Positions 1 to 37,564 are shown, numbered from the stretch's first letter. The stretch is 44,122 nt of DNA from Gemmatimonadaceae bacterium (GCA_036555845.1 DATBKN010000539.1:1-44122), one strand, 5' to 3'. The notes: generated by a model not told the origin, from the sequence alone. Made by a program: numbers and translations.

Positions 1-322
1 ACTCGCCGGTTGTGTCGGCACGCGTGACTCCTCCGTCTCGCGCCACGCGTCCGCTCACGACCTCGAACTTCAGTCTGTCGCCGGTCATGCGGTCATACAC
101 GGCTTCGTCTGTCGCGACGCTTCCCTTGCGGATCGGATTGAAGTAGCGCCTCGCACCGGCCGCCGTTGCCGTCACTTCATATATGATGCGGAACTTGGCC
201 GAGCCGGGCGCGAGCAGCTCGTAACGGGTGTAATGGTCCGCGTCGGTTTGTGGCGTGCGCTGCGCGGCGCCGAGCGCTGGAGCGCCGAATAGCAATAAGC
301 TCGTTAGGACGCGGCGCTTCAT
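1..322 (-). CDS. secreted hypothetical protein, N-terminal part only (3' end lies beyond the window edge)
   Basis: Absent from the ORF track because it runs off the window. Manual minus-strand translation from ATG 322..320 gives MKRRVLTSLLLFGAPALGAAQRTPQTDADHYTRYELLAPGSAKFRIIYEV..., which is signal-peptide-like and open to position 1. Its ATG overlaps the TGA of the upstream gene (ATGA). Confidence 0.55.
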   Translation of the reverse strand, partial: MKRRVLTSLLLFGAPALGAAQRTPQTDADHYTRYELLAPGSAKFRIIYEVTATAAGARRYFNPIRKGSVATDEAVYDRMTGDRLKFEVVSGRVARDGGVTRADTTGE

Positions 323-2262
323 GGGAGCGCGAATGCTTGCAGTTTGGCGCCCGGCCCCGGGCCGCCGGTCGCGATCAGCACGAACTGCTTGCCGGCCTTC
401 GTGCGATATGTCATGGGGTTCGCATAGCCGCGCTGGCCGAGGTCAGTCTGCCAGCGCACATGTCCGTCGTTGCTGTCGATCGCGTACAGCGTGTGGCCAC
501 CGCCAGTGATGAACACGAGACCGCCCTTCGTCGCCAGACCGCCAGGTGCGCCGCTGACGCCTAACGCCGGAGGCAGCTGCACACCGGCGAGAGCTGGATT
601 CCTACGCACGTCCGGCGTGTCACCGATGGGGATGTGCCACTTGTGCTCCCCGGTGTTAAGGTCGATCGCCGTGAGCGTGCCGTACGGCGGTTTGTTCAAC
701 GGCAGCGGAGTCGCGTTGGAATCGCGCTCCGTTCCCTCCGGTCCACCGCTGAGACGCACGCCTAACGAGGAGTTGCGGAGGTCCGCCATGTACGTGTCGT
801 CCACCGTGTCCGACTTCGTGGCCTGCTTGACGAGACGCCACAGACTCGGCGAATTCGACGCCTTTACGAAGAGCGTGTTCGTCTCCGGATCGAACGCCGC
901 TCCGCCCCAGCCCACACCACCGATCGAGCCTGGCATCGTCACAGTGCCCATTTCGCTCGGCGGCGAATACATCGGCCCGGCGACGTATTTGTTCAGCTCA
1001 GCCAACGCCGCGGCTTTGATCTCCGGCGTGTAGTCGAGCACGTCGTCAGGTCCGAATCCCTGCACGGCAACCGGCGCCGGGAGCGACGGGAACGGCTGCG
1101 TCGGCCAGGCGCGCTCGCCAGGCACATCGCTCGCGGGAACGGGACGCTCCTCGATCGGCCAGACGGGTCGCCCGGTTTGCCGATCGAAGACGAAGATCCA
1201 TCCCTGTTTCGTCGGGACGACGACTGCGTCGATGCTGCTGCCGCCGACATTGATCGTCACCAGGTTAGGCGGCGCGGGAAGATCGTAATCCCAGAGCCCG
1301 TGATGCGTGATCTGGTAATGCCAGACTCGCTGCCCGCTGCGCGCGTCCAGGCAAACGATCGACTCGGCGTACAAGTTCGCGCCTAACCGGCGGCCGCCAT
1401 ACCAGTCGTTGCTCGGCGTTCCAACCGGCAGATACAAATAACCGCGCGCGGTATCCACGGTGAACGGCGCCCAAACGTTCGTGTGACCGACGTAGCGCCA
1501 CGACTCTTTTTCCCACGTGGCGTTACCGGAGTCTCCCGGCTCGGGGACCGTCCTGAAGCGCCACATGCGCTTCCCTGTGCGCACGTCGAACGCCTGCACG
1601 TCACCGGGTGGATCGCCCTTGTACACGAGGCGATCTCCAACGCCGTTCCCCACGATCACGAGGTCGTGCCACACGACCGGCGGCGACGTGTTCGTGTAGT
1701 GCCGTTTTTCGACGGGACGCGAGAGATCGCTCGTTAGGTCCACCTCACCGCTGCTGCCGAACGTGGAGATGGGCTGGCCGGTCGCCGCGTTGAGCGCGAT
1801 GAGCCGCCATCTGCTGTTGATGAAGATCCGGCGTTCGGTACCGTCGCTCCACATGGCGACACCGCGATGCACGAAGCCAGTGCCATTGGATGGCTGACCA
1901 GGACGATACGCCTCCGGATCGAACTCCCAGTATTTCGCACCTGTCGTGGGATCGAGCGCCACGACGCGATTGAACGGCGTGCTGAAATACAGCGTGTCGT
2001 TGACCATGATCGGTGTCGTCTGGAACATCCCCGGACGAGCGGCTTTCGTCGAATCGCTTTCCGCGATCGGCTGCTCGCCGGTCTCCCAGGCCCAGGCGCT
2101 CGTCAGGCGCACCACATTGCCGCGATTGATATCCGCGAGCGGCGAGTACTTCATCCCTCCGGGATCACCACCGTATGCCGGCCACTCGACCATTCCGCGC
2201 ACGCTCGGCTGACTACACGCTCCGATCGTGCCCAGCAACACTGCCGCGGCGAGACGCTTCAC
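319..2262 (-). CDS. PQQ-dependent (quinoprotein) sugar/glucose dehydrogenase family, lipoprotein
   Basis: 647-aa ORF with a lipobox-type signal (LLGTIGAC). The EWPAYGGDPGGMKYSPL N-terminal motif and repeated Trp-docking propeller blades are typical of PQQ dehydrogenases. The GTG start overlaps the stop of the next gene (GTGA at 2259-2262). Confidence 0.85.
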   Translation of the reverse strand: MKRLAAAVLLGTIGACSQPSVRGMVEWPAYGGDPGGMKYSPLADINRGNVVRLTSAWAWETGEQPIAESDSTKAARPGMFQTTPIMVNDTLYFSTPFNRVVALDPTTGAKYWEFDPEAYRPGQPSNGTGFVHRGVAMWSDGTERRIFINSRWRLIALNAATGQPISTFGSSGEVDLTSDLSRPVEKRHYTNTSPPVVWHDLVIVGNGVGDRLVYKGDPPGDVQAFDVRTGKRMWRFRTVPEPGDSGNATWEKESWRYVGHTNVWAPFTVDTARGYLYLPVGTPSNDWYGGRRLGANLYAESIVCLDARSGQRVWHYQITHHGLWDYDLPAPPNLVTINVGGSSIDAVVVPTKQGWIFVFDRQTGRPVWPIEERPVPASDVPGERAWPTQPFPSLPAPVAVQGFGPDDVLDYTPEIKAAALAELNKYVAGPMYSPPSEMGTVTMPGSIGGVGWGGAAFDPETNTLFVKASNSPSLWRLVKQATKSDTVDDTYMADLRNSSLGVRLSGGPEGTERDSNATPLPLNKPPYGTLTAIDLNTGEHKWHIPIGDTPDVRRNPALAGVQLPPALGVSGAPGGLATKGGLVFITGGGHTLYAIDSNDGHVRWQTDLGQRGYANPMTYRTKAGKQFVLIATGGPGPGAKLQAFALP

Positions 2263-3476
2263 GGAGTCACTCCGTCGTGTCGCACAACCGTGCCTCCCTT
2301 CATGACGAAGGACACGCGTTTGAGCGCCGTCATGTCAGTGAGCGGGTTGCCGCGCACGGCGATGATGTCGGCCTCGAGCCCAGGCGCGAGGGCGCCGATC
2401 TTCGCAGCCAGGCCTAACGACTCTGCGGCGCGCGATGTCGCCGAGACGAGCGCGTCCGCCGCCGGCTGCCCGCCTTCGTTCACGCGACAAATGAGATCGT
2501 CCACGTTGTGACCGTGTGCGCCGGCCACGGCATCTGTCCCCCACACGAGCTTGAGCCTCGGCGTGCGCGATGCCCGCTTGATGACGTCGACAGCCAGCGG
2601 GATCGCTTTCTCCATCGCGGCGAAACCTTCGGCGTTGTAGTTCCCGATCCCCTCGAAGTAGCGCTTGTTGCCGAGGTAATTGCTGAAGACGAGACCGCAC
2701 TGTGGCGAGAAGTACGTACCGCGCTGCGCCATCAGCTCGAGCACGTCATTCGTCACAAAGACGCCGTGTTCGATCTGGTCACAGCCTGCGAGCACAGCGG
2801 CTTTCACCGCGTCGGCGGCGTGCGCATGCACGAGCACGCGCAACCCTTGCTTGTGCGCCTCGTCGCACGCGGCGTTGAGCTGCTCCGGCGTCATGGTGGC
2901 GCCGCCGCCGTCGCGAATGCTCTTGGATGCAAAAAGCTTCACGAGGTCCGCGCCGCGCGCCTTCATCTCGCGGATGCGAGTGCGCAACTCGTCGGGCGAG
3001 CTGCGTTCGTTGAAGGAGCCTAACGAGGTCAGGATGCGCGGCCCCGCGACGCGCCCGCGGGCGATCGCGTCGCGCAAGTCCGCGTCCTCGGGCGATCCGG
3101 GACTCTGCACCGTCGTAACGCCGCCGCGCAGCGTCGCCATCGCATTGCCGGCCCACGCGAGAGCTTGCACGGCCGGCGAGTCGCCGTCGTCGTTCGTGTG
3201 CAGGCGCTCTTTGCTATTGAGGTACCAGACGATGTGCGCATGCACATCCACGAGACCGGGGAGGAGGGTAACGTCGCCGAGGTCAAAACGCTGGCCGCGG
3301 AAGTCGCGCGGTGCTGCGCCGACCTGAGTGATGCGACCACCGTCGACGATGATGGCGACGTTTTGCTGCAGCTGACCGCGGCCGTCGAACAGGCGATTGG
3401 CAGTGATCAGGATTTGAGCACCGGTCACTGCCGGCAATCCGGCGCCTAACGCGATACCGAAGAGAAGACGGCGCAT
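2259..3476 (-). CDS. metal-dependent amidohydrolase family protein (secreted)
   Basis: 405-aa ORF with a signal peptide. It has the LLPGLVDVHAHI HxH metal-binding motif and later His/Asp ligands typical of the amidohydrolase superfamily. Confidence 0.85.
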   Translation of the reverse strand: MRRLLFGIALGAGLPAVTGAQILITANRLFDGRGQLQQNVAIIVDGGRITQVGAAPRDFRGQRFDLGDVTLLPGLVDVHAHIVWYLNSKERLHTNDDGDSPAVQALAWAGNAMATLRGGVTTVQSPGSPEDADLRDAIARGRVAGPRILTSLGSFNERSSPDELRTRIREMKARGADLVKLFASKSIRDGGGATMTPEQLNAACDEAHKQGLRVLVHAHAADAVKAAVLAGCDQIEHGVFVTNDVLELMAQRGTYFSPQCGLVFSNYLGNKRYFEGIGNYNAEGFAAMEKAIPLAVDVIKRASRTPRLKLVWGTDAVAGAHGHNVDDLICRVNEGGQPAADALVSATSRAAESLGLAAKIGALAPGLEADIIAVRGNPLTDMTALKRVSFVMKGGTVVRHDGVTP

Positions 3477-3477
3477 C

Positions 3478-3533
3478 GAGGTCAGAGGTCAGAGGTCAGA
3501 GGCTAAGGACGACGGACTAAGGACTACGGACTA
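3478..3533 (-). repeat. heptad array of stop triplets (TAGTCCN / TGACCTC units) between GMC oxidoreductase stop and amidohydrolase start
   Basis: The minus strand reads TAGTCCG TAGTCCT TAGTCCG TCGTCCT TAGCCTC TGACCTC TGACCTC TGACCTC, then G, then ATG. The second TAG is the real stop codon. Confidence 0.9.
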
Positions 3534-5143
3534 TTCGAAGCTGATGCCCGCCCCGGAAATACTTCCCCGATCTGTGACGCGCTGCGCAACGATAACGCGC
3601 AGAATGTTAGCGTAGCATTGGCACATCCCGCAGTCGGCATCGTCGGCGCGCCGACGACGAACAGATTCTCATGGTCGTGCGTACGTCCGTAGGAATCGAC
3701 GACGCTCTGGCCGGGATCAGCACCCATACGGCATCCGCCGGCTGGATGATCCTGAAAGTCGTCGACGCTTTTGCGCAGGATCCGCCCGTTGCCGGCGCGC
3801 GCGAGACGCTCGAAGAGCTTCGTGATTTCTTCTTCCTGATATGGCCGCAACGTCTTCGATTCTCCGCTGTCGCGCATCCTGACCGCGGGAAGCGGTGTCC
3901 CCCACGGCGTCTTGCGCGAGCTATCGAGCGCCAGCTCGCTCTCGCGCGCGGGGAGCACGTCGTAGTACGAGCGCACCCTCGTCGTCCCCTTCTTCACGCG
4001 CTCGCGCCAGTCGGCAAGAATGCCGTCGCCTAACAAAAGCTCGCCTGAATCGGAACGCAGCCGCGCCTCACGGGCGAAGCTCGATTCCCAGACGCGCAGG
4101 TCGTGACGCAGGTATCTGTCCGTCGACGGCGCTGGCCGCATGAAGGCTTTCGATACCAGCGAGTGCTGCTCGTTGATGCCGGGATAGAGCTCCATCGGCA
4201 GCTCGATGAACGCCTGCACATTGCGGTGCCCGCAGAGATACTTGCCAACGAGCCCTGACGAATTCGCCAGCCCGTCAGGGAAGCGTGAGTCGGCCGACGT
4301 GAGCAGTAAGTACGAGCTCCAAACATAACCGCACGCCACGACGAACGTCTTCGCGCGAATCTGCAGCGGTTCATTCGCCCGATCGCGCGATACAGCTTCA
4401 GCGACTTCGATCTGTTTGGAGCCCTGCTTGGCAGTCAAGCGCCTAACGTGTGTTCGAGAGTACAAACGTACGCGGCCGTTCGCGCGCAACGCGCGCCACG
4501 TCATATCCGGGTTGTACTTCGCTCCTACGGGGCAAATGGGGAAGCACGTGTCGTTGCGGCAGCACGCGCCGCGGCCTTCGCGCGCGACGGAGAGCTTGGC
4601 CGACGGCTGACTCCACATCGGGATGCCGGCGCTCGTCATCCAGTCGCGCAGCATCGTTAGGTTGTACGTCAGCGGCAAGGCGGGCAGCGGGAACGGCTTG
4701 GAGCGCGGGTCCAGCACGCTCGGCCCCTGTTCACCAGCCACGCCCATGCGCTCTTCGGCTTCCTGATAAAACGGATCCAGCTCGTCATATGTCAGCGCCC
4801 AGTCGCTGCCAACGCCATACAACGATCGCACGCGAAAATCTTCCGGAGAGAAGCGGGGGGTGACGCCACCCCAGTGCATCGCGAGCCCGCCCACCTGCAT
4901 CGAGCGGGACTGAATGCCCTCCACGTCGAGGCCATCGAGGTGATCGCGTGGCCACGGACTTTCACCATAGTCGAGGAAGCGCGAACGCAGCGCGTGCAGG
5001 TTCTGCGTCGGCGGCGCTTCATCACCTGTTTCCAGCACGACGATGTCGGCGCGCCGCGTCTCGGCCAGCTTCCACGCGACCATTGCCGCGCTGATGCCCG
5101 AGCCGACGATGCACACGTCGGTCTCGATCACGCGCGCCGTCAT
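3524..5143 (-). CDS. GMC family FAD-dependent oxidoreductase
   Basis: FAD-binding fold DVCIVGSGISAAMVAW at the N-terminus and a C-terminal GMC-type HPAGGCRMG region. The start is placed at the internal ATG 5143..5141, which overlaps the TGA of the upstream small-subunit gene (ATGA). The ORF-track start at 5215 would overlap that gene by 75 nt. Confidence 0.85.
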   Translation of the reverse strand: MTARVIETDVCIVGSGISAAMVAWKLAETRRADIVVLETGDEAPPTQNLHALRSRFLDYGESPWPRDHLDGLDVEGIQSRSMQVGGLAMHWGGVTPRFSPEDFRVRSLYGVGSDWALTYDELDPFYQEAEERMGVAGEQGPSVLDPRSKPFPLPALPLTYNLTMLRDWMTSAGIPMWSQPSAKLSVAREGRGACCRNDTCFPICPVGAKYNPDMTWRALRANGRVRLYSRTHVRRLTAKQGSKQIEVAEAVSRDRANEPLQIRAKTFVVACGYVWSSYLLLTSADSRFPDGLANSSGLVGKYLCGHRNVQAFIELPMELYPGINEQHSLVSKAFMRPAPSTDRYLRHDLRVWESSFAREARLRSDSGELLLGDGILADWRERVKKGTTRVRSYYDVLPARESELALDSSRKTPWGTPLPAVRMRDSGESKTLRPYQEEEITKLFERLARAGNGRILRKSVDDFQDHPAGGCRMGADPGQSVVDSYGRTHDHENLFVVGAPTMPTAGCANATLTFCALSLRSASQIGEVFPGRASASNSP

Positions 5144-5754
5144 GCTGGCCCCGTGGACGCGCGTGCTTCCGCGAGCGGAAGCGGCTTGCGGCCGTTGTGC
5201 GCGAGCGGCCGGCACTTGTTGCGTCCGATACGAGCGCGATAACAGAGATCTGTGGCGTCGCTCGAATCGTAGAAATGCGCGAGCAAACCTAACGCGACGT
5301 GCGGCGCCGAAACGACGTTCGGAAGGCGTTCGCCTTTGAAATCGCTCAGCGCGTCGCGCACGAGCGCCTGGCGCTCGTTCACGTCTAGCGCGGCGAATGT
5401 CTTCTGGTGCTTGCCGCGAGCGGCACGATCCAGCGCGTTGAGCTGTGTCGCCCAGTTTGGAACCGGCGACGGAGCGGCGTAGCCGATCTTTGGAGAGCCG
5501 TACGGATGCAGCAGCTCGGCGCCTTCGCGATAACCGTTCATCCAGCGCCAGAACGCGTCGCTCGCGATCTCGAGCCGCGCCTGTCCCATTTCGCTGGGGA
5601 GGATCGCGGCGCCTAACGCGCGGATCGCGGCTTGCGATGGAATGGCACGCTGTCGCGCACCGCCCAACGCCAGACGTCGGCCCAGAGCGCGGAGGCTCCC
5701 CGGCAATGCCGCGACTGCACTCAACACCCCGACGAATTGTCGCCTTGTGAACAT
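5140..5754 (-). CDS. gluconate 2-dehydrogenase subunit 3-like small subunit with a twin-arginine signal
   Basis: MFTRRQFVGVLSAVAALPG TAT signal. Small subunit genes of this kind typically precede a GMC flavoprotein gene. The start is chosen at the ATG of MFTRRQF, so it is somewhat uncertain. Confidence 0.65.
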   Translation of the reverse strand: MFTRRQFVGVLSAVAALPGSLRALGRRLALGGARQRAIPSQAAIRALGAAILPSEMGQARLEIASDAFWRWMNGYREGAELLHPYGSPKIGYAAPSPVPNWATQLNALDRAARGKHQKTFAALDVNERQALVRDALSDFKGERLPNVVSAPHVALGLLAHFYDSSDATDLCYRARIGRNKCRPLAHNGRKPLPLAEARASTGPA

Positions 5755-5869
5755 CGACGATCGCTCCAAAAGCAACTGCGGCTGACAGCTAACGCGCGTA
5801 AGAGCTACGACTTAATCACTTGCCTCACAAGACTTTCCCATCGAACACCATCACACTCAATTGGTGAAC

Positions 5870-7637: not shown

Positions 7638-7666
7638 ATCAAATGGGGGTCAGACCCCATTTGATT
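7638..7666. repeat. palindromic element, copy 1 (ATCAAATGGGGGTCAGACCCCATTTGATT)
   Basis: Core GGGGTC-A-GACCCC with palindromic A/T-rich flanks, in the divergent intergenic region. Confidence 0.85.
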
Positions 7667-7692
7667 CCTGGAACGACGGCGGGAGGAAAGTT

Positions 7693-8363: not shown

Positions 8364-8405
8364 TCTGGTTTCCCTTTAAGGTCAACAACAGCTGTCGGCT
8401 GCAGT

Positions 8406-8432
8406 CAGCTGTCGGCCGGCAGCCGACGGCTG
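8406..8432. other. GC-rich hairpin with adjacent direct repeat downstream of the M28 peptidase gene
   Basis: CAGCTGTCGGC (8406-8416) pairs with GCCGACGGCTG (8422-8432): 11 bp with one G-T pair and a 5-nt loop. A direct copy of CAGCTGTCGGC lies at 8389-8399. No clear U-tract follows. Confidence 0.6.
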
Positions 8433-8442
8433 TCAGCTTCAG

Positions 8443-11161: not shown

Positions 11162-11429
11162 TCATAGGGCAACCGATGTTCCGTCGCGCACGCGACGCGT
11201 GGAGCGCCGCTCGACCAGCGCCTAACTGCAGAAGTGATCTAGGCTTAACGTGAGTGCGGCGACGTGGCTGATGGGCCGATGTTGGGCTAAACTCATCGAG
11301 CGGACTGGCAACTGCTGCCGCACCGGGAAGAAAGTGCCCGGTAGCAATTAGCTCTTGGTCCGTAGTCCTTAACCAACAAGCGACTGCGCCTCTGACGATC
11401 TGCTTTGCCGCGACGAATTAGCCAAGAGC

Positions 11430-11461
11430 TACGGACTAAGGACTAGGGACTAGCTTCTAAC
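11430..11461 (+). repeat. heptad array TACGGAC TAAGGAC TAGGGAC TAGCTTC TAAC abutting the ATG at 11462
   Basis: Stop triplets lie at 11437, 11444, 11451 and 11458, exactly 7 nt apart. It shares the 15-mer ACGGACTAAGGACTA with 3512-3526. An inverted partial copy lies at 11359-11372. Confidence 0.85.
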
Positions 11462-14693: not shown

Positions 14694-14721
14694 GATAAAG
14701 GGGGTCTGACCCCCTTTGATT
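14694..14721. repeat. palindromic element, copy 2 (GATAAAGGGGGTCTGACCCCCTTTGATT)
   Basis: Perfect 21-nt palindrome AAAGGGGGTC-T-GACCCCCTTT at 14697-14717, starting 3 nt after the stop of the binding-protein gene. It may also act as a terminator. Confidence 0.85.
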
Positions 14722-17351: not shown

Positions 17352-17372
17352 GAAGCTCGCCGTTCGTTCGTG

Positions 17373-17621
17373 CTATGGCGCAACAGCGGGCGGCGGCGGC
17401 GGTTCGGGAATGACCCAGGATCCATCGAAGCCGCACGTCTTGTGGGTACCGTCGCAGATCGGCTTGGTCAACGACTCGCCGCATCGACAGAGTGAGATGG
17501 CTTTGCCAGGGGCAATCTTCAGCTCGCGACCATTTACGTCGACGATGCGAACGTTAGGTGCATCTTCAACTGAAATCTTGTACGGCCCATTGTCGCGGAC
17601 CAGAATCGTTATGACGCTCAT
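17373..17621 (-). CDS. CDGSH iron-sulfur domain protein
   Basis: The CRCGESLTKPICDGTHK sequence matches the CDGSH 2Fe-2S signature. The start is set at ATG 17621 (MSVITILVRDNGPY). Confidence 0.85.
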   Translation of the reverse strand: MSVITILVRDNGPYKISVEDAPNVRIVDVNGRELKIAPGKAISLCRCGESLTKPICDGTHKTCGFDGSWVIPEPPPPPAVAP

Positions 17622-17717
17622 CGTTCCTCGAAAATGAATGACCTGGCGGAGCACGCGTTAGACCGGCGCGCCATGCAAGCTGAAGCAGTTCCAAACGGCA
17701 GAGAAAGATCAACTACA

Positions 17718-17847
17718 TCACCGCGGACTAACGCGGACCCAACGCGAACTAACGCGCGGATAAGACTCGTAATCAACAAACTGTCGGTTTGTGTTGTCCC
17801 GCTGTGGCCCGCGCTCGTTCGCGCTCGTTCGCGCTAGTCCGCGGTGA
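17718..17847. repeat. imperfect inverted repeat built from 10-11 bp phased CGCG-containing units, with a central small palindrome
   Basis: The left arm is TCACCGCGGACTAACGCGGACCCAACGCGAACTAACGCGCGG. The right arm is GCCCGCGCTCGTTCGCGCTCGTTCGCGCTAGTCCGCGGTGA. The outer 13 nt are perfectly complementary, and the centre holds CAACAAACTGTCGGTTTGTGTTG. Confidence 0.8.
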
Positions 17848-17860
17848 CGCGGTGCGTCTG

Positions 17861-17889
17861 TTGACGAGTCGTTAAATAAACGCTTAATT
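17861..17889 (+). promoter_or_regulatory. possible sigma-70-type promoter of tetR (would give a leaderless or near-leaderless mRNA)
   Basis: TTGACG (17861-17866), a 17-nt spacer, then TTAATT (17884-17889), with GTG at 17896. The -10 match is weak. Confidence 0.3.
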
Positions 17890-17895
17890 AGGAGC

Positions 17896-18546
17896 GTGAC
17901 TCTCTCAGTCTCCAAATCAGCGGAGCCGTCGCCTTCATCCGCCGAGGCAATCCTCGACGCCGCCGAACAGCTCTTTTCGGCGCATGGCTACAACGCGATA
18001 TCAATCAAGGAAATCGCTAGCAAAGCCGGCGTTAACGTGGCTCTGATCTACTACTATCACGACAGTAAGGAAGCACTATACCGTCATGTCATCGAGCGCT
18101 TCGTCGGTGAGCTGATCCGCAGAGTGAGCGCCAGGTTGGACGCCGCTCCGGACGCCGAACAAGCCATACGCGCGGTCACTCGGGCGCAGTTCGAAATGCT
18201 CAGCGCGAAGCCGCACTTCCCGAAGCTCATCGTCCGTGAGCTCGTGGATTATCAAGCGACGCACGCCGTGGGAGTGCTGCGCGAGCTTGGGGCCACGCTC
18301 TTTCGCAGGCTGGCCGCAATCATTCGCGAGGGGCAGGCGCGCGGGACCTTCCGCGGCGACCTGGATCCCAACTTCGCTGCGTTCTCCACAATTGCGCAGC
18401 TACCGTACTTCTATGTCGCTCGGCCGGCGCTCGGCGTCCTCGCGTTGGGCGACACCCAGCACTTCGACGACTCGACGGCAGCTGACTTCGCCCGCCACGC
18501 CGGCGACTTTGCCGTGGCGGCGTTGCGCCCGTCCCCAACCGGATAA
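17896..18546 (+). CDS. TetR/AcrR family transcriptional regulator
   Basis: N-terminal HTH YNAISIKEIASKAGVNVALIYYYHDSKEALY. The start codon is GTG, and the gene lies upstream of the efflux genes. Confidence 0.9.
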   Translation: MTLSVSKSAEPSPSSAEAILDAAEQLFSAHGYNAISIKEIASKAGVNVALIYYYHDSKEALYRHVIERFVGELIRRVSARLDAAPDAEQAIRAVTRAQFEMLSAKPHFPKLIVRELVDYQATHAVGVLRELGATLFRRLAAIIREGQARGTFRGDLDPNFAAFSTIAQLPYFYVARPALGVLALGDTQHFDDSTAADFARHAGDFAVAALRPSPTG

Positions 18547-31010: not shown

Positions 31011-31037
31011 ATCAATGGGGGTCAGACCCCATTTATC
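31011..31037. repeat. palindromic element, copy 3 (ATCAATGGGGGTCAGACCCCATTTATC)
   Basis: Same core and flanks, located just after the susD-like terminator hairpin. Confidence 0.85.
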
Positions 31038-31117: not shown

Positions 31118-33562
31118 ATGATCGGCCGACACACACTCAAGTTCGCGAGCCTAACGCTGCTCGGCGCAGCGCTCGCGGCGCCCGCGTTCGCGCAAGCGAA
31201 CTACTCGCGAGCGGAACAGCTGCTCAGTTGGAACACGGACAAGCTCGTGTCAGGCGATCAGGTGAATCCGCAGTGGCTCAAGGACGGCAACCGCTTCTGG
31301 TATCGAAACAAAACGGCTGATGGCGCCGAATTTGTACTCATCGATCCAGTCGCGAATGCGCGGCGGCTGCTCTTCGATCACATGAGACTGGCAGTTGCGA
31401 TGTCGACGGCGGGGGACACCGCGTTTGACGGCAAGCGACTTCCATTCAATACGTTCAAGTTCACGAGCGACGGGGACAACGAAAATGAAATCGAATTCAA
31501 CACTGGGAAGCGGCGATTCGTGTGCAACATTACCAGCTATCGTTGCACCGTTGGGGACACGCTTAAAAGTGATCAGCCCTACGTCCTCTCGCCCGACAAA
31601 AAAAAGGAAGCCTTCATCCACAACTACAACCTCTACGTCCGCACGCGAGGGCAAGCGGACAGCACGCAGCTAACGACGGACGGAATTCAGTGGTTCTCGT
31701 ACGGCCTCGCTGAGCTGCGTCCCTTCCAGACGTTTCGGCCACAAGGGGCGCGACGGCCGTTGTTGCGCTGGTCGCCGGACGGCAAGAAGATCGTGGTCTA
31801 TCGAGTGGACGAGCGCAACGTCGGCCACATGCACTATCTGTCGATGACGTCGCAGCGCGTTAGGCACTTCTCGCAGCCGTACGCCCTCCCTGGCGATTCG
31901 GTGGTGCCGTTCCCGCACATCTATGTCGTTGACGTAGCGACAAAGCAGGTCGTTGAAGCCAAGATCAGTCCCCGGCCCAATCAGTTAGGCATCGGCGGAT
32001 CGGCAGTCGACTCGGCCTGGAGCGAAACGTCGGACAAGGTGCACGTCGCCTTCCAGACGCGCGGCTCGAAGAGCTCCTACCTCGGCGAGATCAACGCGGC
32101 GACAGGCGACTGGCGCGTGATCGCGCGCGACACGGGGAAGACATACACCGAAATCAGCAATCCTCAGGATCCCGCCTCGTGGTACGTGACCAAAGACGGC
32201 AAAGACGCTTTCTGGTGGTCAGAGCGCGATGGCTGGGGACACCTCTATCGCTTCGACGCGACCGGTGTCGCGAACATTACATCGACTGACGGCGACGGCA
32301 GCTTTTCGATGGCGCCGGAGCCCAAGGCGCAACTGACGACGGGCGCATGGCAGGTCGGCCGCATCTCGTACGTCGACGAGACGGCGAAGCAGATCTACTT
32401 CACAGCGCGAGGCCGCGAGGCGAACACGTTCCTCTACTATCCCAAGCTGTATCGCATGGGATACGACGGAAGCAACGTCACCGTCGTGACGCCGGAAGAA
32501 GGCTTCCATCAGATCTCCTTCAGTCCGAGCGGGAAGTATTTCGTCGACACGTATTCGAAGATCGAAACTCCGCCTGTATCAGTTTTGCGCTCGACTGCGA
32601 CAGGTGCTGTCGTTCGCAAGCTCGAGGAGGCGGACGTATCGCGGCTCAAGGCGATCGGGTGGCGGCCCGGCCAGGTGTTCAGCGTGAAGGCGCGCGATGG
32701 CGTCACGGACATCTACGGCGTGCTGTATCTGCCGCCTAACGTGGACTCGACAAAGAAGTATCCCATCATCACGCACATCTATCCCGGCCCGCAGGTCGGC
32801 AGTGTCGGCGCCTGGACCTTCAAGAACGGCGGCGAGCAGTTCTCGCTGGCGGAACTTGGCTTCGTGGTGATTCAGCTCGATCACCTTGGCACTCCGCTCC
32901 GCTCGAAGGCGTTCCACGACAACTACTACGGCTTCTTTGGCGACAACGGGTTGCCGGATCACATCACGGCGATCAAGCAGCTCGCGTCACGCTATCCGTT
33001 CATCGATGCGGATCGCGTAGGGATTTTCGGACACTCGGGCGGCGGCTTTGCGTCGACGGACGCGATCCTGCGCTATCCCGAGTTCTTCAAAGTCGCCGTG
33101 AGTGGCGCGGGAAATCACGACAACCGCAGTTACAACATCTATTGGGCCGAGAAGTATCAAGGACTCATGAACCGCGACACGGTGAAGAAGACAGACAACT
33201 TCGCAACGTCGGCCAACAAGACGATGGCGAAGAATCTGCGCGGTCACTTGCTGCTCATGCACGGCGACATGGATGACAACGTGCATCCGGCGAACACGAT
33301 TCAGGTCGTGGACGAGTTGATCAAGGCGAACCGCACATTCGATCTCATCGTCGCTCCGAACCGTGCACACGGACTCAATGAGCCGTACTTCATTCGCCGG
33401 CGCTGGGACTATTTCGTGCAACACTTGTTAGGCCAGACGCCGCCGGACAACTATCTCATCATCGAGCCCACGAACAATCCGCGGGCAGCGGTGCAGACGC
33501 CGGATGATGAGGACCAGCCGGCTGTCCTGCGGATCTGGCCGATAATGCCGATAAATCCATAG
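31118..33562 (+). CDS. S9 family serine peptidase, dipeptidyl-peptidase IV-like (paralog 1)
   Basis: DPP-IV N-terminal propeller plus a catalytic domain with the nucleophile elbow GHSGGGF, acid GDMDDNVHP and His NRAHG. A signal peptide is present. Confidence 0.9.
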   Translation: MIGRHTLKFASLTLLGAALAAPAFAQANYSRAEQLLSWNTDKLVSGDQVNPQWLKDGNRFWYRNKTADGAEFVLIDPVANARRLLFDHMRLAVAMSTAGDTAFDGKRLPFNTFKFTSDGDNENEIEFNTGKRRFVCNITSYRCTVGDTLKSDQPYVLSPDKKKEAFIHNYNLYVRTRGQADSTQLTTDGIQWFSYGLAELRPFQTFRPQGARRPLLRWSPDGKKIVVYRVDERNVGHMHYLSMTSQRVRHFSQPYALPGDSVVPFPHIYVVDVATKQVVEAKISPRPNQLGIGGSAVDSAWSETSDKVHVAFQTRGSKSSYLGEINAATGDWRVIARDTGKTYTEISNPQDPASWYVTKDGKDAFWWSERDGWGHLYRFDATGVANITSTDGDGSFSMAPEPKAQLTTGAWQVGRISYVDETAKQIYFTARGREANTFLYYPKLYRMGYDGSNVTVVTPEEGFHQISFSPSGKYFVDTYSKIETPPVSVLRSTATGAVVRKLEEADVSRLKAIGWRPGQVFSVKARDGVTDIYGVLYLPPNVDSTKKYPIITHIYPGPQVGSVGAWTFKNGGEQFSLAELGFVVIQLDHLGTPLRSKAFHDNYYGFFGDNGLPDHITAIKQLASRYPFIDADRVGIFGHSGGGFASTDAILRYPEFFKVAVSGAGNHDNRSYNIYWAEKYQGLMNRDTVKKTDNFATSANKTMAKNLRGHLLLMHGDMDDNVHPANTIQVVDELIKANRTFDLIVAPNRAHGLNEPYFIRRRWDYFVQHLLGQTPPDNYLIIEPTNNPRAAVQTPDDEDQPAVLRIWPIMPINP

Positions 33563-33607
33563 GGGCTAGGGGATAGGGGATAGGGCATAGAGCCTAACGC
33601 CATCTAA
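33560..33607 (+). repeat. heptad array of stop triplets starting at the true stop of the S9 peptidase gene
   Basis: TAG at 33560 (the real stop), 33567, 33574, 33581 and 33588, then TAA at 33595, all 7 nt apart, plus TAA at 33605. The units are TAGGGGC TAGGGGA TAGGGGA TAGGGCA TAGAGCC TAACGCC. Confidence 0.9.
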
Positions 33608-33608
33608 C

Positions 33609-33647
33609 GGCCCCGCGGCGAGTACCACACGCGGGGCCGTTCCTTTT
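33609..33647 (+). terminator. putative intrinsic terminator after S9 peptidase paralog 1
   Basis: A 9-bp stem GGCCCCGCG / CGCGGGGCC (33609-33617 / 33630-33638) with a 12-nt loop, followed by GTTCCTTTT. Confidence 0.65.
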
Positions 33648-33662
33648 CCGGGGAAACAGCTC

Positions 33663-36005
33663 ATGAAACGACTGCTGCCGCTCGTTCTGCTACCGAGTGC
33701 TGCTTTGGGCCAGGGGACGCGCACCGACTATGCGCGCGCCGAGCAGTTGTTAGGCTGGAATGCGCAGGAACTCGTGCTGCACGACGCGCCGCGCATCCGC
33801 TGGCTGTCCGGCGATCGCTTCTGGTACCGGGATCGTGCCGAGAAAGGGTACGAGTTTGTCATCGCCGACGCGGCGACAGGTGCCAAACGGCCGGTCTTCG
33901 ATCACGTGCGCCTCGCGGCACAGCTTTCGGAAGCGGCCGACACGACGTACGAACCATACAAGCTCCCGTTCCGGGATTTCACATTCGAGGATGGCGAGAA
34001 GGCAATCCGCTTCAGCGTGGCACGCTCGAAGTTCTGGAAGTGCGACCTAACGAGCTATGTCTGTACCGGACCGGACACGGTCGCGCACTACAAGACAAGC
34101 GACGTCAAATCACCGGACGGGAAGTGGCTCGCGTTCGAGCGCGGCGGCAACCTCTGGATGCGGGCGAACGACGCGAACGCGACGGACGGCGCCGGCGCCG
34201 AGGAGGTCCAGCTCACGACGGACGGAACGGCCGAGTACGGCTACGCCGTGGCGAACGTCGGCTGCTGCGGGCAGGTCACGAGCGTGCGCAACAAGGCGGA
34301 GCTGCGGCCCTACGTGCTCTGGTCTGCTGACTCCAAGCGTTTGGTCACGCACCGCTTCGACATGCGCGGCGTTAGGCAGATGTATCTGCTCGAAACGAAG
34401 AATCCGGGGCCGATTCTACATTCGTATCGCTACGCGCTGCCCGGTGATTCTGTGATCCCGAAGCTCGAGTTGTACGTATTTGACGTCGGGAGCCGGCGTG
34501 GGGTGAAGGTGGATCAATCGGCGGCGGACGTCATCAATACGAGCTGCTGCTGGTTCAGCACCGACACCGTCTGGAAGGACGTGCGCTGGACGCCGCAGGG
34601 TGACCAGGTCTTCTTCACGTTAGGCAAGCGCGGCTACAAGGAGCTGTCGCTGTACGTCGCCGATCCGGCGACCGGGTCGACGCGCAAGGTTCTGACTGAA
34701 ACGGGGAAAACCTACGTCGAGACGAACCAGAACTCGGGTGGTGTTCCCAATTGGCGTCCGGCGGCTGGCGCTCGCGAGATCGTCTGGTGGTCGGAGCGAG
34801 ACGGTTGGGGGCATCTCTACTTGATCGACGCGGCGACCGGTGCAGTGAAGAACCGGATCACAGCTGGCGACTGGATGGTGAGCGACCTCTTGTGGGTCGA
34901 CGACGCGCTGCGCACGGTCTACTTCACGGCGCGTGGTCGCGAGAAGGGCGATCCGTACTTCCGCTATCTCTATCGCGCGCGTCTCGATGGCAGCGGCCTC
35001 GAGCGCCTAACGTCCGAGGAAAGCGACCACGAGGTGCAAGTCTCGCCCAGTGGCAAGTATTTCGTCGACAGCTACTCCAAACCCGACGCACCGCCGGTCA
35101 CGGTGATCCGCCGAGCGGACGGGACCGTCGTTCGCGAGCTGCAGCGTGGCGACATCACTCGCCTCCTCGCGGCCGGCTGGACGATGCCGGAACCGCTCAT
35201 CGTGAAGGCGCGTGACGGTAACACGGAGCTGCGCGGATTGCTCTGGCGTCCGGCGCAGTTCGATTCGAGCAAACACTATCCAATCATCGATTACATCTAC
35301 CCGGGTCCGCAGATCGGTTCGATCGGATCGCGCCAGTTCCGGGCAAACCCGAGCGGGAATGCGCGAGCGCTCGCGGAGCTGGGCTTCTTCGTGCTTCAGG
35401 TCGACGCGTTAGGCACGCCCGGTCGCTCCAAGGCGTTCCACGACTTCTATTATGGGAACATGGGGGACAACGGGATTCCGGATCACATCACGGCAATCAA
35501 GCAGGTCGCGCTCAAGTACAGCCAAGTGGATCTGGATCGCGTCGGCATCTTCGGGCATTCTGGCGGCGGCTTCTCGTCCACGGATGCGATCCTGCGCTAT
35601 CCCGACTTCTTCAAGGTTGCCGTCTCGTCCGCGGGGAACCACGACAATCGCAGCTACGACTATACCTGGGGGGAGAAGTACCATGGTGTTCTCAAGAAGC
35701 TGAGCGATTCCACGGACTCGTTCGACAGCCAGTCGAACTGGCGGCTCGCGAAGAACCTGCGCGGCAAGTTGCTTCTGATGTATGGGACGCTGGATGACAA
35801 CGTGCACCCGAACGCCACGCTCTTGCTAGTCGACGAGCTCATCAAGGCGAACAAGGAGTTCGACATGCTGGTTATGCCGAATCGCAACCACGGCTTCGCG
35901 AACGAACCGTATGTGATCAAGCGGACGTGGGACTACTTTGTGCAGCACTTGTTAGGCAAGGCGCCGCCTGAGGGCTACGTGATTCGCCAACCGGTGACGC
36001 CATGA
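33663..36005 (+). CDS. S9 family serine peptidase, dipeptidyl-peptidase IV-like (paralog 2)
   Basis: Collinear with paralog 1 (GHSGGGF, GTLDDNVHP, NRNHG), with a signal peptide. This is a tandem duplication. Confidence 0.9.
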   Translation: MKRLLPLVLLPSAALGQGTRTDYARAEQLLGWNAQELVLHDAPRIRWLSGDRFWYRDRAEKGYEFVIADAATGAKRPVFDHVRLAAQLSEAADTTYEPYKLPFRDFTFEDGEKAIRFSVARSKFWKCDLTSYVCTGPDTVAHYKTSDVKSPDGKWLAFERGGNLWMRANDANATDGAGAEEVQLTTDGTAEYGYAVANVGCCGQVTSVRNKAELRPYVLWSADSKRLVTHRFDMRGVRQMYLLETKNPGPILHSYRYALPGDSVIPKLELYVFDVGSRRGVKVDQSAADVINTSCCWFSTDTVWKDVRWTPQGDQVFFTLGKRGYKELSLYVADPATGSTRKVLTETGKTYVETNQNSGGVPNWRPAAGAREIVWWSERDGWGHLYLIDAATGAVKNRITAGDWMVSDLLWVDDALRTVYFTARGREKGDPYFRYLYRARLDGSGLERLTSEESDHEVQVSPSGKYFVDSYSKPDAPPVTVIRRADGTVVRELQRGDITRLLAAGWTMPEPLIVKARDGNTELRGLLWRPAQFDSSKHYPIIDYIYPGPQIGSIGSRQFRANPSGNARALAELGFFVLQVDALGTPGRSKAFHDFYYGNMGDNGIPDHITAIKQVALKYSQVDLDRVGIFGHSGGGFSSTDAILRYPDFFKVAVSSAGNHDNRSYDYTWGEKYHGVLKKLSDSTDSFDSQSNWRLAKNLRGKLLLMYGTLDDNVHPNATLLLVDELIKANKEFDMLVMPNRNHGFANEPYVIKRTWDYFVQHLLGKAPPEGYVIRQPVTP

Positions 36006-37420
36006 AGGTCTTAGGGATAGGGGTAGGGGTAGGGGTATTCGTTGCTCTGACGGCGAGCGTCGCACAAGCGCAGCGGCCAGCCGTGGGGCCCGCGGTGCGG
36101 CAGTTTGTGCGCAGTGACGCGGCCGTCATCGCGCTCACGAACGCGCGCGTGATCGACGGCACCGGCGCCGCAGGGCGTGACGGGCAGACGATCCTCATTC
36201 AGGACGGCAAGATCGCGGCGTTAGGCGCGACGGGCAGTGTTACGATCCCACCAGGTGCCGAGACGATGGACCTTGCTGGTAAGTCGGTGCTGCCGGGGCT
36301 CGTCATGGTGCACGAGCATCTGTTCTATCCAACTGGTCCCGGGACGTACGGGCAGCTTGGCCTGAGTTTTTTGCGGTTGTATCTCGCTGGCGGCGTCACG
36401 ACGATGCGCACCGGCGGAAACATGAGTGGCTACGCCGACATCAGCTACAAACGCGGCATCGACTCCGGAGTCGTGGCAGGACCGGCGATGGACGCGACGG
36501 CGCCATATCTCAATGGCGGGCCGTTCCCGCTGCGGCAGGTGCGCGTCCTCAAAGGCCCGGAAGACGCCCGAAAGATGGTCGCATATTGGGCAGACGAAGG
36601 CGCGACGTCGTTCAAGGCGTACATGCAGATCACGCGCGCCGAGTTAGGCGCCGCGATCGAGGAAGCGCATAAGCGCGGGCTCAAGGTGACCGGGCACCTC
36701 TGTTCGGTCACCTTCGCCGAAGCGGCGAAGCTCGGCATCGACGATCTCGAGCACGGATTCATTGTCGCGACCGACTTCGCGCCTAACAAGCAAGCCGACG
36801 TCTGCACCAATTCGCGGGGGTTCGATGCAGTGGACCCGGCCGGACCAGCCGCGCGGGAGCTCATCCGCGAGCTTGTCGCGCGCAAAGTCGCAATAACATC
36901 CACCCTAACTGTGTTCGAGACCTCCGTCCCGGGACGACCCGTGCCGCCGGGCCTCGACGTTCTTGTTCCACAGCTGCGCGAGCAATTCGAACGGCAGCAC
37001 GCAGCGATTGCTCGGCAAACTGATACGACGCGACTCGCTGGGCTCAAGAAAGAGATGGCGATGGAGCTCGCATTTGCGAAGGCCGGCGGACTGCTCGTCG
37101 CTGGTACGGATCCAACTGGGTATGGCGGCGTTATTCCTGGCTACTCAAATCAGCGGCAACTGGAGCTTCTGGTTGAGGCTGGATTCACACCGCTCGAAGC
37201 GATCAGCATCGGGACGCTGAATGGCGCGAAGTACTTGGGGCGCGAGGCGCAGATCGGCACGATCGCTGTAGGGAAGCAGGCTGACCTCATGGTTGTAGCC
37301 GGGAATCCCGCCGCGCGAATAGGCGACGTGCGCAACGTGGAGATCGTCTTCCGGTTAGGCGTCGCCTATGATCCCAAGAAGCTGATCGAGTCCGTCAAGG
37401 GAAGCGTGGGGCTGTATTAG
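36002..37420 (+). CDS. metal-dependent amidohydrolase family protein (secreted)
   Basis: ATGA overlap with the preceding gene, a signal peptide, the VLPGLVMVHEHL HxH motif and a C-terminal GTDP...IAVGKQADL pattern typical of the family. Confidence 0.85.
   Translation: MKVLGIGVGVGVFVALTASVAQAQRPAVGPAVRQFVRSDAAVIALTNARVIDGTGAAGRDGQTILIQDGKIAALGATGSVTIPPGAETMDLAGKSVLPGLVMVHEHLFYPTGPGTYGQLGLSFLRLYLAGGVTTMRTGGNMSGYADISYKRGIDSGVVAGPAMDATAPYLNGGPFPLRQVRVLKGPEDARKMVAYWADEGATSFKAYMQITRAELGAAIEEAHKRGLKVTGHLCSVTFAEAAKLGIDDLEHGFIVATDFAPNKQADVCTNSRGFDAVDPAGPAARELIRELVARKVAITSTLTVFETSVPGRPVPPGLDVLVPQLREQFERQHAAIARQTDTTRLAGLKKEMAMELAFAKAGGLLVAGTDPTGYGGVIPGYSNQRQLELLVEAGFTPLEAISIGTLNGAKYLGREAQIGTIAVGKQADLMVVAGNPAARIGDVRNVEIVFRLGVAYDPKKLIESVKGSVGLY
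36011..36037 (+). repeat. in-frame GGGATA/GGGGTA hexamer repeat inside the signal-peptide coding region
   Basis: TTAGGGATAGGGGTAGGGGTAGGGGTA encodes LGIGVGVGV. The unit sequence resembles the 33560 heptads. Confidence 0.8.
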
Positions 37421-37564
37421 GTCAGAGGCCCGAGATGAAACGTTCGATGAAACATCCATGTGCTCGTAAGAGCCGTAATTACAGGGTCCCGCAGAGTCAT
37501 CAGCAAAAGTGGGAACTTCGATCATCTGCGTGGCACTATTACGGAAGCCACCTCGAGTAACCCA

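Follow-up and report, generated by a model that had tools for sequence, protein, structure and literature searches.

Why should the whole space between two bacterial genes be filled by a row of seven-nucleotide units, nearly all of which open with a stop triplet? The question is raised by a 56-nt array of eight heptamers lying at positions 3533..3478 (minus strand) of a 44,122-nt stretch of DNA from a Gemmatimonadaceae bacterium (GCA_036555845.1, DATBKN010000539.1:1-44122), hereafter called the window (44 kb, 63.5% GC), where it separates a gene encoding a GMC-family oxidoreductase from one encoding an amidohydrolase. A first-pass annotation of this DNA had proposed a structured all-frame translational barrier or a binding array, and had pointed to the short tandemly repeated repetitive (STRR) sequences of cyanobacteria as the closest analogy. 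Tandem heptamer repeats have been known in cyanobacteria since 1990, and were later found in Xanthomonas, Burkholderia, Beggiatoaceae, and Bacteroidetes; the STRR heptamers of heterocystous cyanobacteria, credited to Mazel et al. 1990, reportedly have the units CCCCAGT, TTGGTCA, and CAACAGT. The comparisons presented below show that the array is a member of this widespread and already described group of bacterial heptamer repeats; it does not represent a novel type of element. We consider it probable that the feature is a slippage-driven, STRR-like heptanucleotide microsatellite occupying boundary space, which probably also provides a G-poor, weakly folding, start-free leader.

The Array Is a Composite of Two Unit Families

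Read on the minus strand, the array begins with five TAGTCCN-type units (TAGTCCG, TAGTCCT, TAGTCCG, TCGTCCT, and TAGCCTC; 3499..3533) and ends with three perfect TGACCTC units (GAGGTCA on the plus strand; 3478..3498), the latter belonging to a family that also precedes eight orthologous ATG codons. Two related unit families, TAGTCCN and TGACCTY, are combined here, and Tandem Repeats Finder (TRF) reported period 7 at 3478-3502 (100% matches) and at 3503-3533, with 3.6 and 4.4 copies, respectively. The second TAG of the array (3524..3526, minus strand) is the stop codon of the GMC oxidoreductase gene, on which the open reading frame (ORF), the Pfam match, and the gene calls agree, and the first unit overlaps the final GMC codons (…S N S P *). 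The last TGACCTC unit is followed by a single G (3477) and then by the ATG of the amidohydrolase (3474..3476, minus strand), a start that is kept as ATGC.. in the orthologues. The intercistronic spacer of 47 nt is entirely filled by the array, which also takes in the last GMC codons; four identical metagenome contigs exhibit the same GMC stop, the same amidohydrolase start, and the same 47-nt gap.

Stop triplets (TAG or TGA) open seven of the eight units, at 3533, 3526, 3519, 3505, 3498, 3491, and 3484, thereby covering all three residues modulo 3, and the plus strand carries TAA at 3504-3506 and 3518-3520. Inspection of the 47-nt spacer revealed no ATG, GTG, or TTG and no GGAG, GAGG, or AGGA, and the array as a whole is pyrimidine-rich and G-poor (21 C and 10 G in 56 nt). 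The first-pass annotation had listed the same eight heptamers followed by G and ATG, the second TAG as the true GMC stop, the stop-bearing openings of seven units in all frames, both plus-strand TAA triplets, and the lack of a Shine–Dalgarno (SD) sequence before the amidohydrolase ATG, and in each of these respects its description of the sequence is accurate.

The interpretation placed on the stops requires separate treatment. A dedicated all-frame barrier would halt read-through or frameshifted ribosomes before the next cistron, and the presence of stops in all three frames, with a second in-frame TAG seven codons past the real GMC stop, is in keeping with such a device. The seven stops are nevertheless not independent, being copies of about three related units, and any stop-containing 7-mer repeated three times closes all frames automatically.

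The Array Is Retained at the Orthologous Junction

Exact-protein look-ups yielded eight syntenic loci in which the amidohydrolase is 79-94% identical to that of the window, and a metagenome scan for orthologues added only relatives at ≤63% identity, mostly without synteny. Units of the TGACCTY, TAGACCT, or TAGTCCT family stand 0-8 nt before the ATG in 8/8 syntenic relatives, in gaps that range from 14 to 139 nt. Four copies of TTGACCT/CTGACCT occupy the gap in L204 (94% identity, 50 nt), L205 (92%, 51 nt), and L211 (82%, 61 nt), and four to five copies of TAGTCCT/TAGACCT that in L207 (92%, 32 nt) and L208 (89%, 33 nt). The L209 junction (88%) has three TAGTCCT units, TAGCCTC, and two CGACCYC units followed by G-ATG, in a gap of 45 nt as called or 33 nt to the orthologous ATGCGA. 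Two CGACCTC units encode the last GMC residues in L210 (84%, 14 nt), and two TGACCTC units run into TG-ATG in L212 (79%, 139 nt). The TAGTCCT/TAGACCT variant lies in L207, L208, and L209 at the position of the TAGTCCN part of the window (100% reference, 47 nt). The window and L209 share one architecture, in which the first TAG is out of frame, the second TAG is the stop, and a final G precedes the ATG, and their spacers (47 vs. 33 nt) differ by 14 nt, exactly two units. Copy number, which the first-pass annotation had suggested comparing between strains, does vary among relatives. In L124 (63%), an unrelated heptamer, GATGGGA, is repeated three times at the GMC–amidohydrolase junction. Additionally, the C-terminal tail of the GMC protein after a conserved F-P-x-R varies and is partly encoded by the array. 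The relatives, whose amidohydrolases are 79-100% identical, have retained an array here from their common ancestor onward.

Changes of this sort could make the array a tuning knob or phase-variable spacer, in which gain and loss of units shift the stop-to-start distance and adjust translational coupling across the population. The spread of spacer lengths among the relatives, the two-unit step between the window and L209, and the slippage-prone nature of heptamers (Mrazek et al. 2007, as summarised in PMC4679880) speak for it, whereas the array is identical in the window and in L001-L004 (four contigs from other metagenome samples), the genes are metabolic and have no surface or virulence function, and the array lies neither inside an ORF nor between promoter elements. 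We give this role hardly any credence. The stricter notion of a phase-variable contingency locus was also considered and was rejected for an intercistronic array that lacks a promoter-like site and shows this same identity across samples.

Units Turn Over and Arise at Other Junctions

Comparable arrays were traced at further gene boundaries of the lineage. Upstream of the HhH-GPD gene, the window carries three GGACTAN units (CTACGGA CTAAGGA CTAGGGA CTAG; 11429..11453, plus strand), the same unit reversed, ending 8 nt before the ATG. The corresponding position holds CAGACCT in L207, GACCGAR in L210, three copies of CTCCTYG in L212, and four copies of AGCTCGG together with four of TTGACCT in L211, and no heptamer array was found upstream of this gene in L208 and L209. 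Upstream of the operon-heading gene with a twin-arginine translocation (Tat) signal, a single TAGCTCT is present in five relatives and three to four copies in L209 and L211. The Tat-signal gene of L212 is preceded by four CTGACCT units, G, and ATG, which is the layout of the window junction at a different gene; a sense array ending near a start codon without an SD core lies at 7645-7674 of that locus.

The region around the DPP-IV genes was compared in three further relatives (L213, L214, and L215). In the window, five TAGGGGN units (33560..33590, plus strand; detected by TRF) begin with the TAG at which the first DPP-IV gene actually terminates, and the array fills the space from this stop to a strong terminator-like hairpin (about 33604-33640). 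An array lies between the DPP-IV stop and the terminator in 4/4 genomes, with the differing units TAGGGGN, GGGGATA, AGAGGTC, and GGGGTTR. The stop of a second amidohydrolase is occupied in the window by a single TAG-GTCAGAGG unit (37418..37430, plus strand), and in the relatives by arrays of 4 to 9 or more units at or after the stop: nine TGAGGTC units starting at a real TGA in L213, four TAGTCYT units starting at a real TAG in L215, and a stop-free GYCASAG array directly after the TAG in L214. Arrays that start at a true stop codon, a feature first remarked on at the GMC–amidohydrolase junction, thus recur at other junctions of the lineage.

The same second amidohydrolase harbors repeats within its coding sequence. 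Translated arrays of the complementary unit AGGTCAG occupy the signal-peptide N-region in L213, L214, and L215, and about nine of these units encode RSEVRGQ-type repeats in L214 (12340-12450). The signal peptide of the window protein contains a period-6 TAGGGG repeat that encodes LGIGVGVGV (36012..36037, plus strand), which, counted with the GGACTAN and TAGGGGN arrays, brings the further arrays of this sort in the window to three. The translated repeats indicate that microsatellite turnover reshapes the signal peptide. As to the dispersal of units, TAGTCCN/GGACTAN occurs at two sites in the 44-kb window, and TGACCTY at three junctions in the relatives, each time in sense orientation just before a different start codon.

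Together, these junctions reveal that the array arises and is remodelled by whole-unit gain and loss combined with point changes. The orthologous comparisons document persistence with unit turnover, change of length by whole units, birth from a seed, anchoring to stops over starts, and entry into N-termini. We propose that such arrays would settle where the sequence is unconstrained, that is, in the stretch from a stop to the next start or to a terminator, and in the N-regions of signal peptides. At a 3′ boundary, stop-bearing units, or arrays starting after the stop, would be tolerated, because the ORF then closes within three units in any register. Such a tolerance filter would yield arrays opening at a genuine stop codon, as well as a variable GMC tail, and the stops would be an effect of the filter and not a purpose-built barrier.

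A purely neutral microsatellite, generated by slippage in any unconstrained spacer and without effect on expression, would account for several of these observations: orthologous sites differ in unit and in orientation, a single-copy TAGCTCT seed has given rise to an array, and arrays also lie within tolerant coding N-termini. It sits less well with the retention of the unit family at the GMC–amidohydrolase junction in all nine lineages down to 79% protein identity, and with the recurrence of TGACCTY just before other start codons. We regard pure neutrality as unlikely, though deserving of serious consideration.

The unit family conserved at this junction and the sense TGACCTY units that precede the ATG of three different genes by 0-8 nt could alternatively reflect a binding platform, in which UGACCUC/UAGUCCN units of the mRNA, or TGACCT in the DNA, are bound cooperatively by a regulator that governs how the downstream cistron is translated or how stable it is; candidate binders would be a small RNA or an RNA-binding protein of the S1, Csp, or KH type. 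The supporting junctions number just three to four independent cases, and unrelated heptamers replace the unit at other orthologous sites within relatives of 83-93% identity. The junction comparisons argue both against a stop-codon barrier and, at most sites, against strict sequence recognition.

Period-7 Arrays Exceed Chance and Span Many Phyla

A lag-7 detector recovered 8-17 arrays in 187 kb, compared with 0-0.3 in block-shuffled sequence. In the 187 kb from Gemmatimonadaceae, period 7 accounted for 17 of the 26 short tandem arrays (0.3 in shuffles). It was also the commonest period, with 14 arrays, in 606 kb of soil metagenome loci not picked for repeats, and in 869 kb of array-rich genomes 267 period-7 arrays stood against ≤23 for every other period. 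Their location is predominantly intergenic: this holds for 30 of the 31 arrays from unbiased sets and for 116 of 124 TAGTCCN arrays by the crude gene calls of the large survey, which took the longest ORF and applied a GC3 (third codon position GC) filter.

A scan for TAGTCCN (query TAGTCCNTAGTCCNTAGTCC, one genome per species) detected arrays in at least 119 genomes, in Acidobacteriota, Cyanobacteria, Bacteroidota, Planctomycetota, Gemmatimonadota, Acidimicrobiia, Verrucomicrobiota, and some Proteobacteria. Among the matches listed, these arrays grade into TAATCCC, TAGCCCC, and TGTTCCC heptamers. In cyanobacterial loci (Nostoc, Anabaena, and others), TAGTCCN arrays directly adjoin units of the CAGTCCC, TTGGTCA, and CAACAGT types, which makes the analogy with STRR sequences drawn at the outset an apt one. 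For two window proteins, the closest named homologues belong to metagenome-assembled genomes of Gemmatimonadaceae (92%, 83%, and 82% identity). The heptamer class is hereby extended to this family, and TAGTCCN to many soil and aquatic phyla; the survey of long simple sequence repeats by Mrazek, Guo and Shah in 2007 is said to predate the genomes of Gemmatimonadota. With heptanucleotide repeats of that kind, the present arrays share head-to-tail copies in excess of chance, whole-unit change, and a non-coding location.

Arrays Abut Gene Boundaries in Either Orientation

The position of each array, normalised to the length of its intergenic region, had a mean u of 0.29 against 0.5 expected (Kolmogorov–Smirnov p=5e-11, n=75), and anchoring was likewise evident within Gemmatimonadaceae alone (p=6e-5, n=24). 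The nearest boundary was a stop in 49 cases and a start in 26, and gaps of ≤3 nt were observed for 20/82 stop-side and 7/68 start-side distances; since the start-side distances may be biased toward stop-rich arrays, we place weight on the stop-side distances and on the supplied gene calls. Arrays of this class abut gene boundaries, mostly stop codons, and do so in either orientation. A lack of any positional association of period-7 arrays with gene boundaries would have spoken against the first-pass annotation, and on this point its expectation held. The same association is described by Rehm et al. (PMC4692102), and the positional pattern is real and general, yet previously described in other phyla. 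It also weighs against pure neutrality, under which arrays would be spread through intergenic regions.

Orientation and stop content bear on the remaining interpretations. No orientation bias was found over 124 TAGTCCN arrays, either in 5′ contexts (37 sense, 37 antisense) or in 3′ contexts (49 and 55). A strand-specific RNA signal was tried as an explanation of the TAGTCCN arrays and rejected on this balance, which favors neutrality and disfavors both the binding platform and the barrier. A stop triplet on either strand was present in 61 of 99 independent heptamer arrays (54.2 expected from composition) and in 44 of 76 distinct units (38.8 expected), and about 40% of the arrays are stop-free on both strands. 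The excess is somewhat larger among the distinct units of Gemmatimonadaceae, 11/13 with a stop against 6.8 expected, a set in which the units are interrelated. The idea that stops define the heptamer units was accordingly dismissed, as the permutation test gives a weak excess only.

In favor of a dedicated barrier one can thus adduce, besides the frames covered at the window junction, the frequency with which arrays touch or overlap stops, their start at true stops at several junctions, and the stop-bearing units of Gemmatimonadaceae. This has to be set against the near-expected stop content, the neutral orientation, the stop-free array directly after the orthologous stop in L214, the translation of AGGTCAG in a coding N-region, and the occurrence of arrays within coding sequence and ahead of divergent promoters. 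In bacteria, moreover, selection for fail-safe stops was not found by a published survey (PMC6764699). The all-frame barrier put forward by the first-pass annotation is not upheld, and we judge it very improbable.

Possible Leader Properties and SD Usage

The first-pass annotation had further supposed that the element is structured. The junction folds at -17.6 kcal/mol, which is ordinary in comparison with dinucleotide shuffles (z=-0.27), and the region of the 11429 array behaves alike (z=-0.38), while the region 33550-33665 is structured (z=-2.25) owing to the terminator hairpin. Rfam returned no matches in the window at the gathering score, and a search of 3300-3700 at E<=1 gave a single chance-level match (E=0.5). 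The claim of a structured element at the junction was not supported, and no promoter or terminator was found between the GMC and amidohydrolase genes. The missing structure signal fits a neutral origin, and the binding platform is further weakened by the absence of covariation, structure, and any identified candidate binder.

Regions spanning -40..+20 of array-bearing starts fold more weakly than those of 144 other genes (mean -9.1 vs. -15.8 kcal/mol, p=1e-4). With respect to SD usage, a 4-mer SD core occurs at -18..-4 in 36/143 called genes (about 25%) of L204-L215 and the window, against 15/143 (10%) in a control window. The missing SD at the amidohydrolase is normal for the lineage, and the Gemmatimonadaceae look to be an SD-poor family, like the heptamer-rich Bacteroidota and Cyanobacteria. 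The 4-mer enrichment and the base-composition profile before the start codons of the lineage were uninformative. A weakly folding, start-free leader may allow SD-independent initiation, or re-initiation after the GMC stop, an idea that we advance tentatively and from the properties of the spacer. The comparisons define junctions at which such a role can be tested.

Several points weigh against the combination of a microsatellite with a leader function. Seven of the twelve array-bearing starts in the folding comparison are the same orthologous junction and hence not independent, the weaker folding comes partly from lower GC (0.54 vs. 0.59), and the structure of the junction is what composition predicts (z=-0.27), so that any leader effect would be compositional and not derive from repeat order. 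The orientation neutrality of TAGTCCN across phyla is easier to reconcile with a neutral origin, or one at the DNA level, than with a role at the RNA level. In the opposite direction, local slippage alone does not explain TGACCTY in sense before three starts, a hint that this particular unit is selected or recognized. That the array persists over relatives of 79-100% identity could be due to selection or to the long life of a microsatellite, two causes inseparable in these comparisons.

A more far-reaching reading is that TGACCTY/TAGTCCN arrays may be a selected leader for SD-independent initiation or re-initiation in the SD-poor Gemmatimonadaceae. They would then form a pyrimidine-rich, anti-SD-like, unstructured landing pad, possibly read by S1 or another binder of single-stranded RNA, and would be copied or re-evolved in sense directly before starts and long conserved at the GMC–amidohydrolase junction. 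This would imply that the STRR-like heptamers of several SD-poor phyla share a translation role; we rate it as rather unlikely. A cooperative binding platform appears more doubtful still, even though a binding role has been proposed for the TAACTGA repeats (PMC4679880), the layout parallels those TAACTGA repeats that are described as ending 1 nt before starts (PMC4679880), and a further parallel exists in the Nostoc heptamers overlapping the recO start (bioRxiv 10.1101/2022.06.06.494920). Neutrality, in turn, draws some support from published heptamer studies, which, as far as the account in PMC4692102 extends, found no function. The slippage-driven microsatellite in boundary space, probably with leader properties, remains the reading that we prefer.

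Relation to Described Heptamer Repeats

With the STRR sequences, as their units are reported, the window array shares the organization in tandem heptamers within intergenic regions. CAGTCCC is a rotation of the reported STRR unit CCCCAGT, TAGTCCC is one base off the rotated STRR1 unit, and GAGGTCA, the complement of TGACCTC, has GGTCA in common with the reported TTGGTCA; the units of the window array are variants, by one or two bases, of rotated or complemented STRR units. Unlike them, it comes from a member of the Gemmatimonadaceae of 63.5% GC and not from a heterocystous cyanobacterium, and its units are not the canonical three.

The TAACTGA repeats are reported from marine Beggiatoaceae, some Cyanobacteria, and Bacteroidetes (MacGregor 2015, PMC4679880), where the largest class is said to end 1 nt before a start, mostly without an SD, and some to overlap the end of the upstream ORF. 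Both groups consist of stop-bearing 7-nt units, are almost entirely intergenic, and are interrupted by related 7-mers, to the extent that the portrayal in PMC4679880 covers these traits. The start-proximal layout is also present here, in that a sense array ends 1 nt before an SD-less ATG, and likewise in the orthologues. The differences lie in the units (TAGTCCN/TGACCTY), in the phylum, and in orientation, as TAACTGA is described as strongly start-oriented (PMC4679880), whereas the TAGTCCN arrays sampled here show no bias and abut stops more often. Strict membership in either the STRR or the TAACTGA group fails because units and taxon differ.

Heptamers of the GGGAATC and GGGGA(C/T)T types, which form G-quadruplexes (G4), have been described in Xanthomonas and Nostoc (Rehm et al. 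2015, PMC4692102). According to the parts of that study concerned with distribution, they resemble the present arrays in being abundant, in their non-coding bias, in lying within 50 bp of a stop or start with some overlapping the stop, and in varying in length and sequence among close relatives at one junction, with no link to phase-variable genes (PMC4692102). The G4 pattern itself (four or more G3+ tracts) is absent from 3478-3533, which has GG runs only. It is present at 33560-33590, where GGGG-CTA-GGGG-ATA-GGGG-ATA-GGG on the coding strand offers four G3-4 tracts with 3-nt loops, and where the placement matches that of the G-rich heptamers of Rehm et al. (PMC4692102).

In a broader survey of long simple sequence repeats, heptanucleotides are summarised as the most abundant, as phyletically scattered, and as having a proposed origin by slippage, and units that are not multiples of three as excluded from coding regions (Mrazek, Guo and Shah 2007, via PMC4679880). 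Finally, the heptamers GACYAAT (eight copies) and TTTTGAA (three copies) near or overlapping starts in Nostoc PCC 7120, including recO/recF (Pradhan et al. 2022, bioRxiv 10.1101/2022.06.06.494920), are similarly associated, in the account given there, with a weak or distant SD and with a suspected role in translation. They depart from our case in units and organism, and in the modest effects of deletion on promoter activity and the binding of a regulator that are described for them (bioRxiv 10.1101/2022.06.06.494920).

Flanking Genes and Other Repeats in the Window

The GMC-family oxidoreductase (539 aa) spans 3524..5143 on the minus strand by the gene call on the identical contigs, the longest ORF extending to 5215, and matches Pfam GMC_oxred_C (5e-19). 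The amidohydrolase gene (2259..3476, minus strand; Amidohydro_1, 1.5e-34), whose product has an N-terminus (MRRLLFGIALGAGLPAVTGAQ) that looks like a signal peptide, is followed with a 4-nt overlap by a gene for a pyrroloquinoline quinone (PQQ) dehydrogenase (319..2262, minus strand). This overlap indicates an operon, and the array lies, by this indication, inside a GMC oxidoreductase–amidohydrolase–PQQ dehydrogenase operon. At the head of the operon, a small gene (5140-5775, minus strand) overlaps the GMC gene by 4 nt and, like its orthologues, encodes a twin-arginine-like N-terminus (MFTRRQF...). No Pfam match is recorded for this gene, which may encode the small subunit of a gluconate-dehydrogenase-like complex.

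The window contains further short-period arrays besides that at 3478-3533, some of them accompanied by inverted copies. The HhH-GPD array (block 11424-11459, plus strand) has an inverted partner, TAGCTCTTGGTCCGTAGTCCTTA, at 11342-11371, located 53-65 nt upstream of the block and 58 nt upstream of the three-unit array, and the two could pair across the 5′ leader. At many TAGTCCN loci a second inverted array lies 20-40 nt away and would form a hairpin; inverted array pairs are common in loci of Planctomycetota and Gemmatimonadota (e.g., L021, L044, L087, and L107). Two period-10 arrays of the CGCGGACTAA and CGCGCTCGTT types, at 17718-17756 and 17810-17847 (plus strand), are mutually inverted over 21 nt with 90% complementarity. 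They flank about 55-90 nt within an 884-nt gene-free region (17352-18235), and the pair may represent a long hairpin, or else an RNA or regulatory region that lacks annotation.

A palindrome resembling repetitive extragenic palindromic (REP) elements, ATGGGGGTCAGACCCCAT, occurs at 7643-7660 and 31015-31032 (plus strand), with a variant at 14699-14716 (minus strand). All copies are intergenic, none is expected by chance, and the palindrome probably represents a small hairpin element dispersed in this genome. Heptamers of the GCTGTCA/GCTGACA type at 8388-8437 (plus strand) are arranged as direct and inverted copies in a near-palindromic block between co-directional genes, and are also found upstream of the Tat-signal gene in L205, L207, and L208, and at 5051-5075 of L208. 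They represent another recurrent unit family, one that builds hairpins rather than unstructured spacers.

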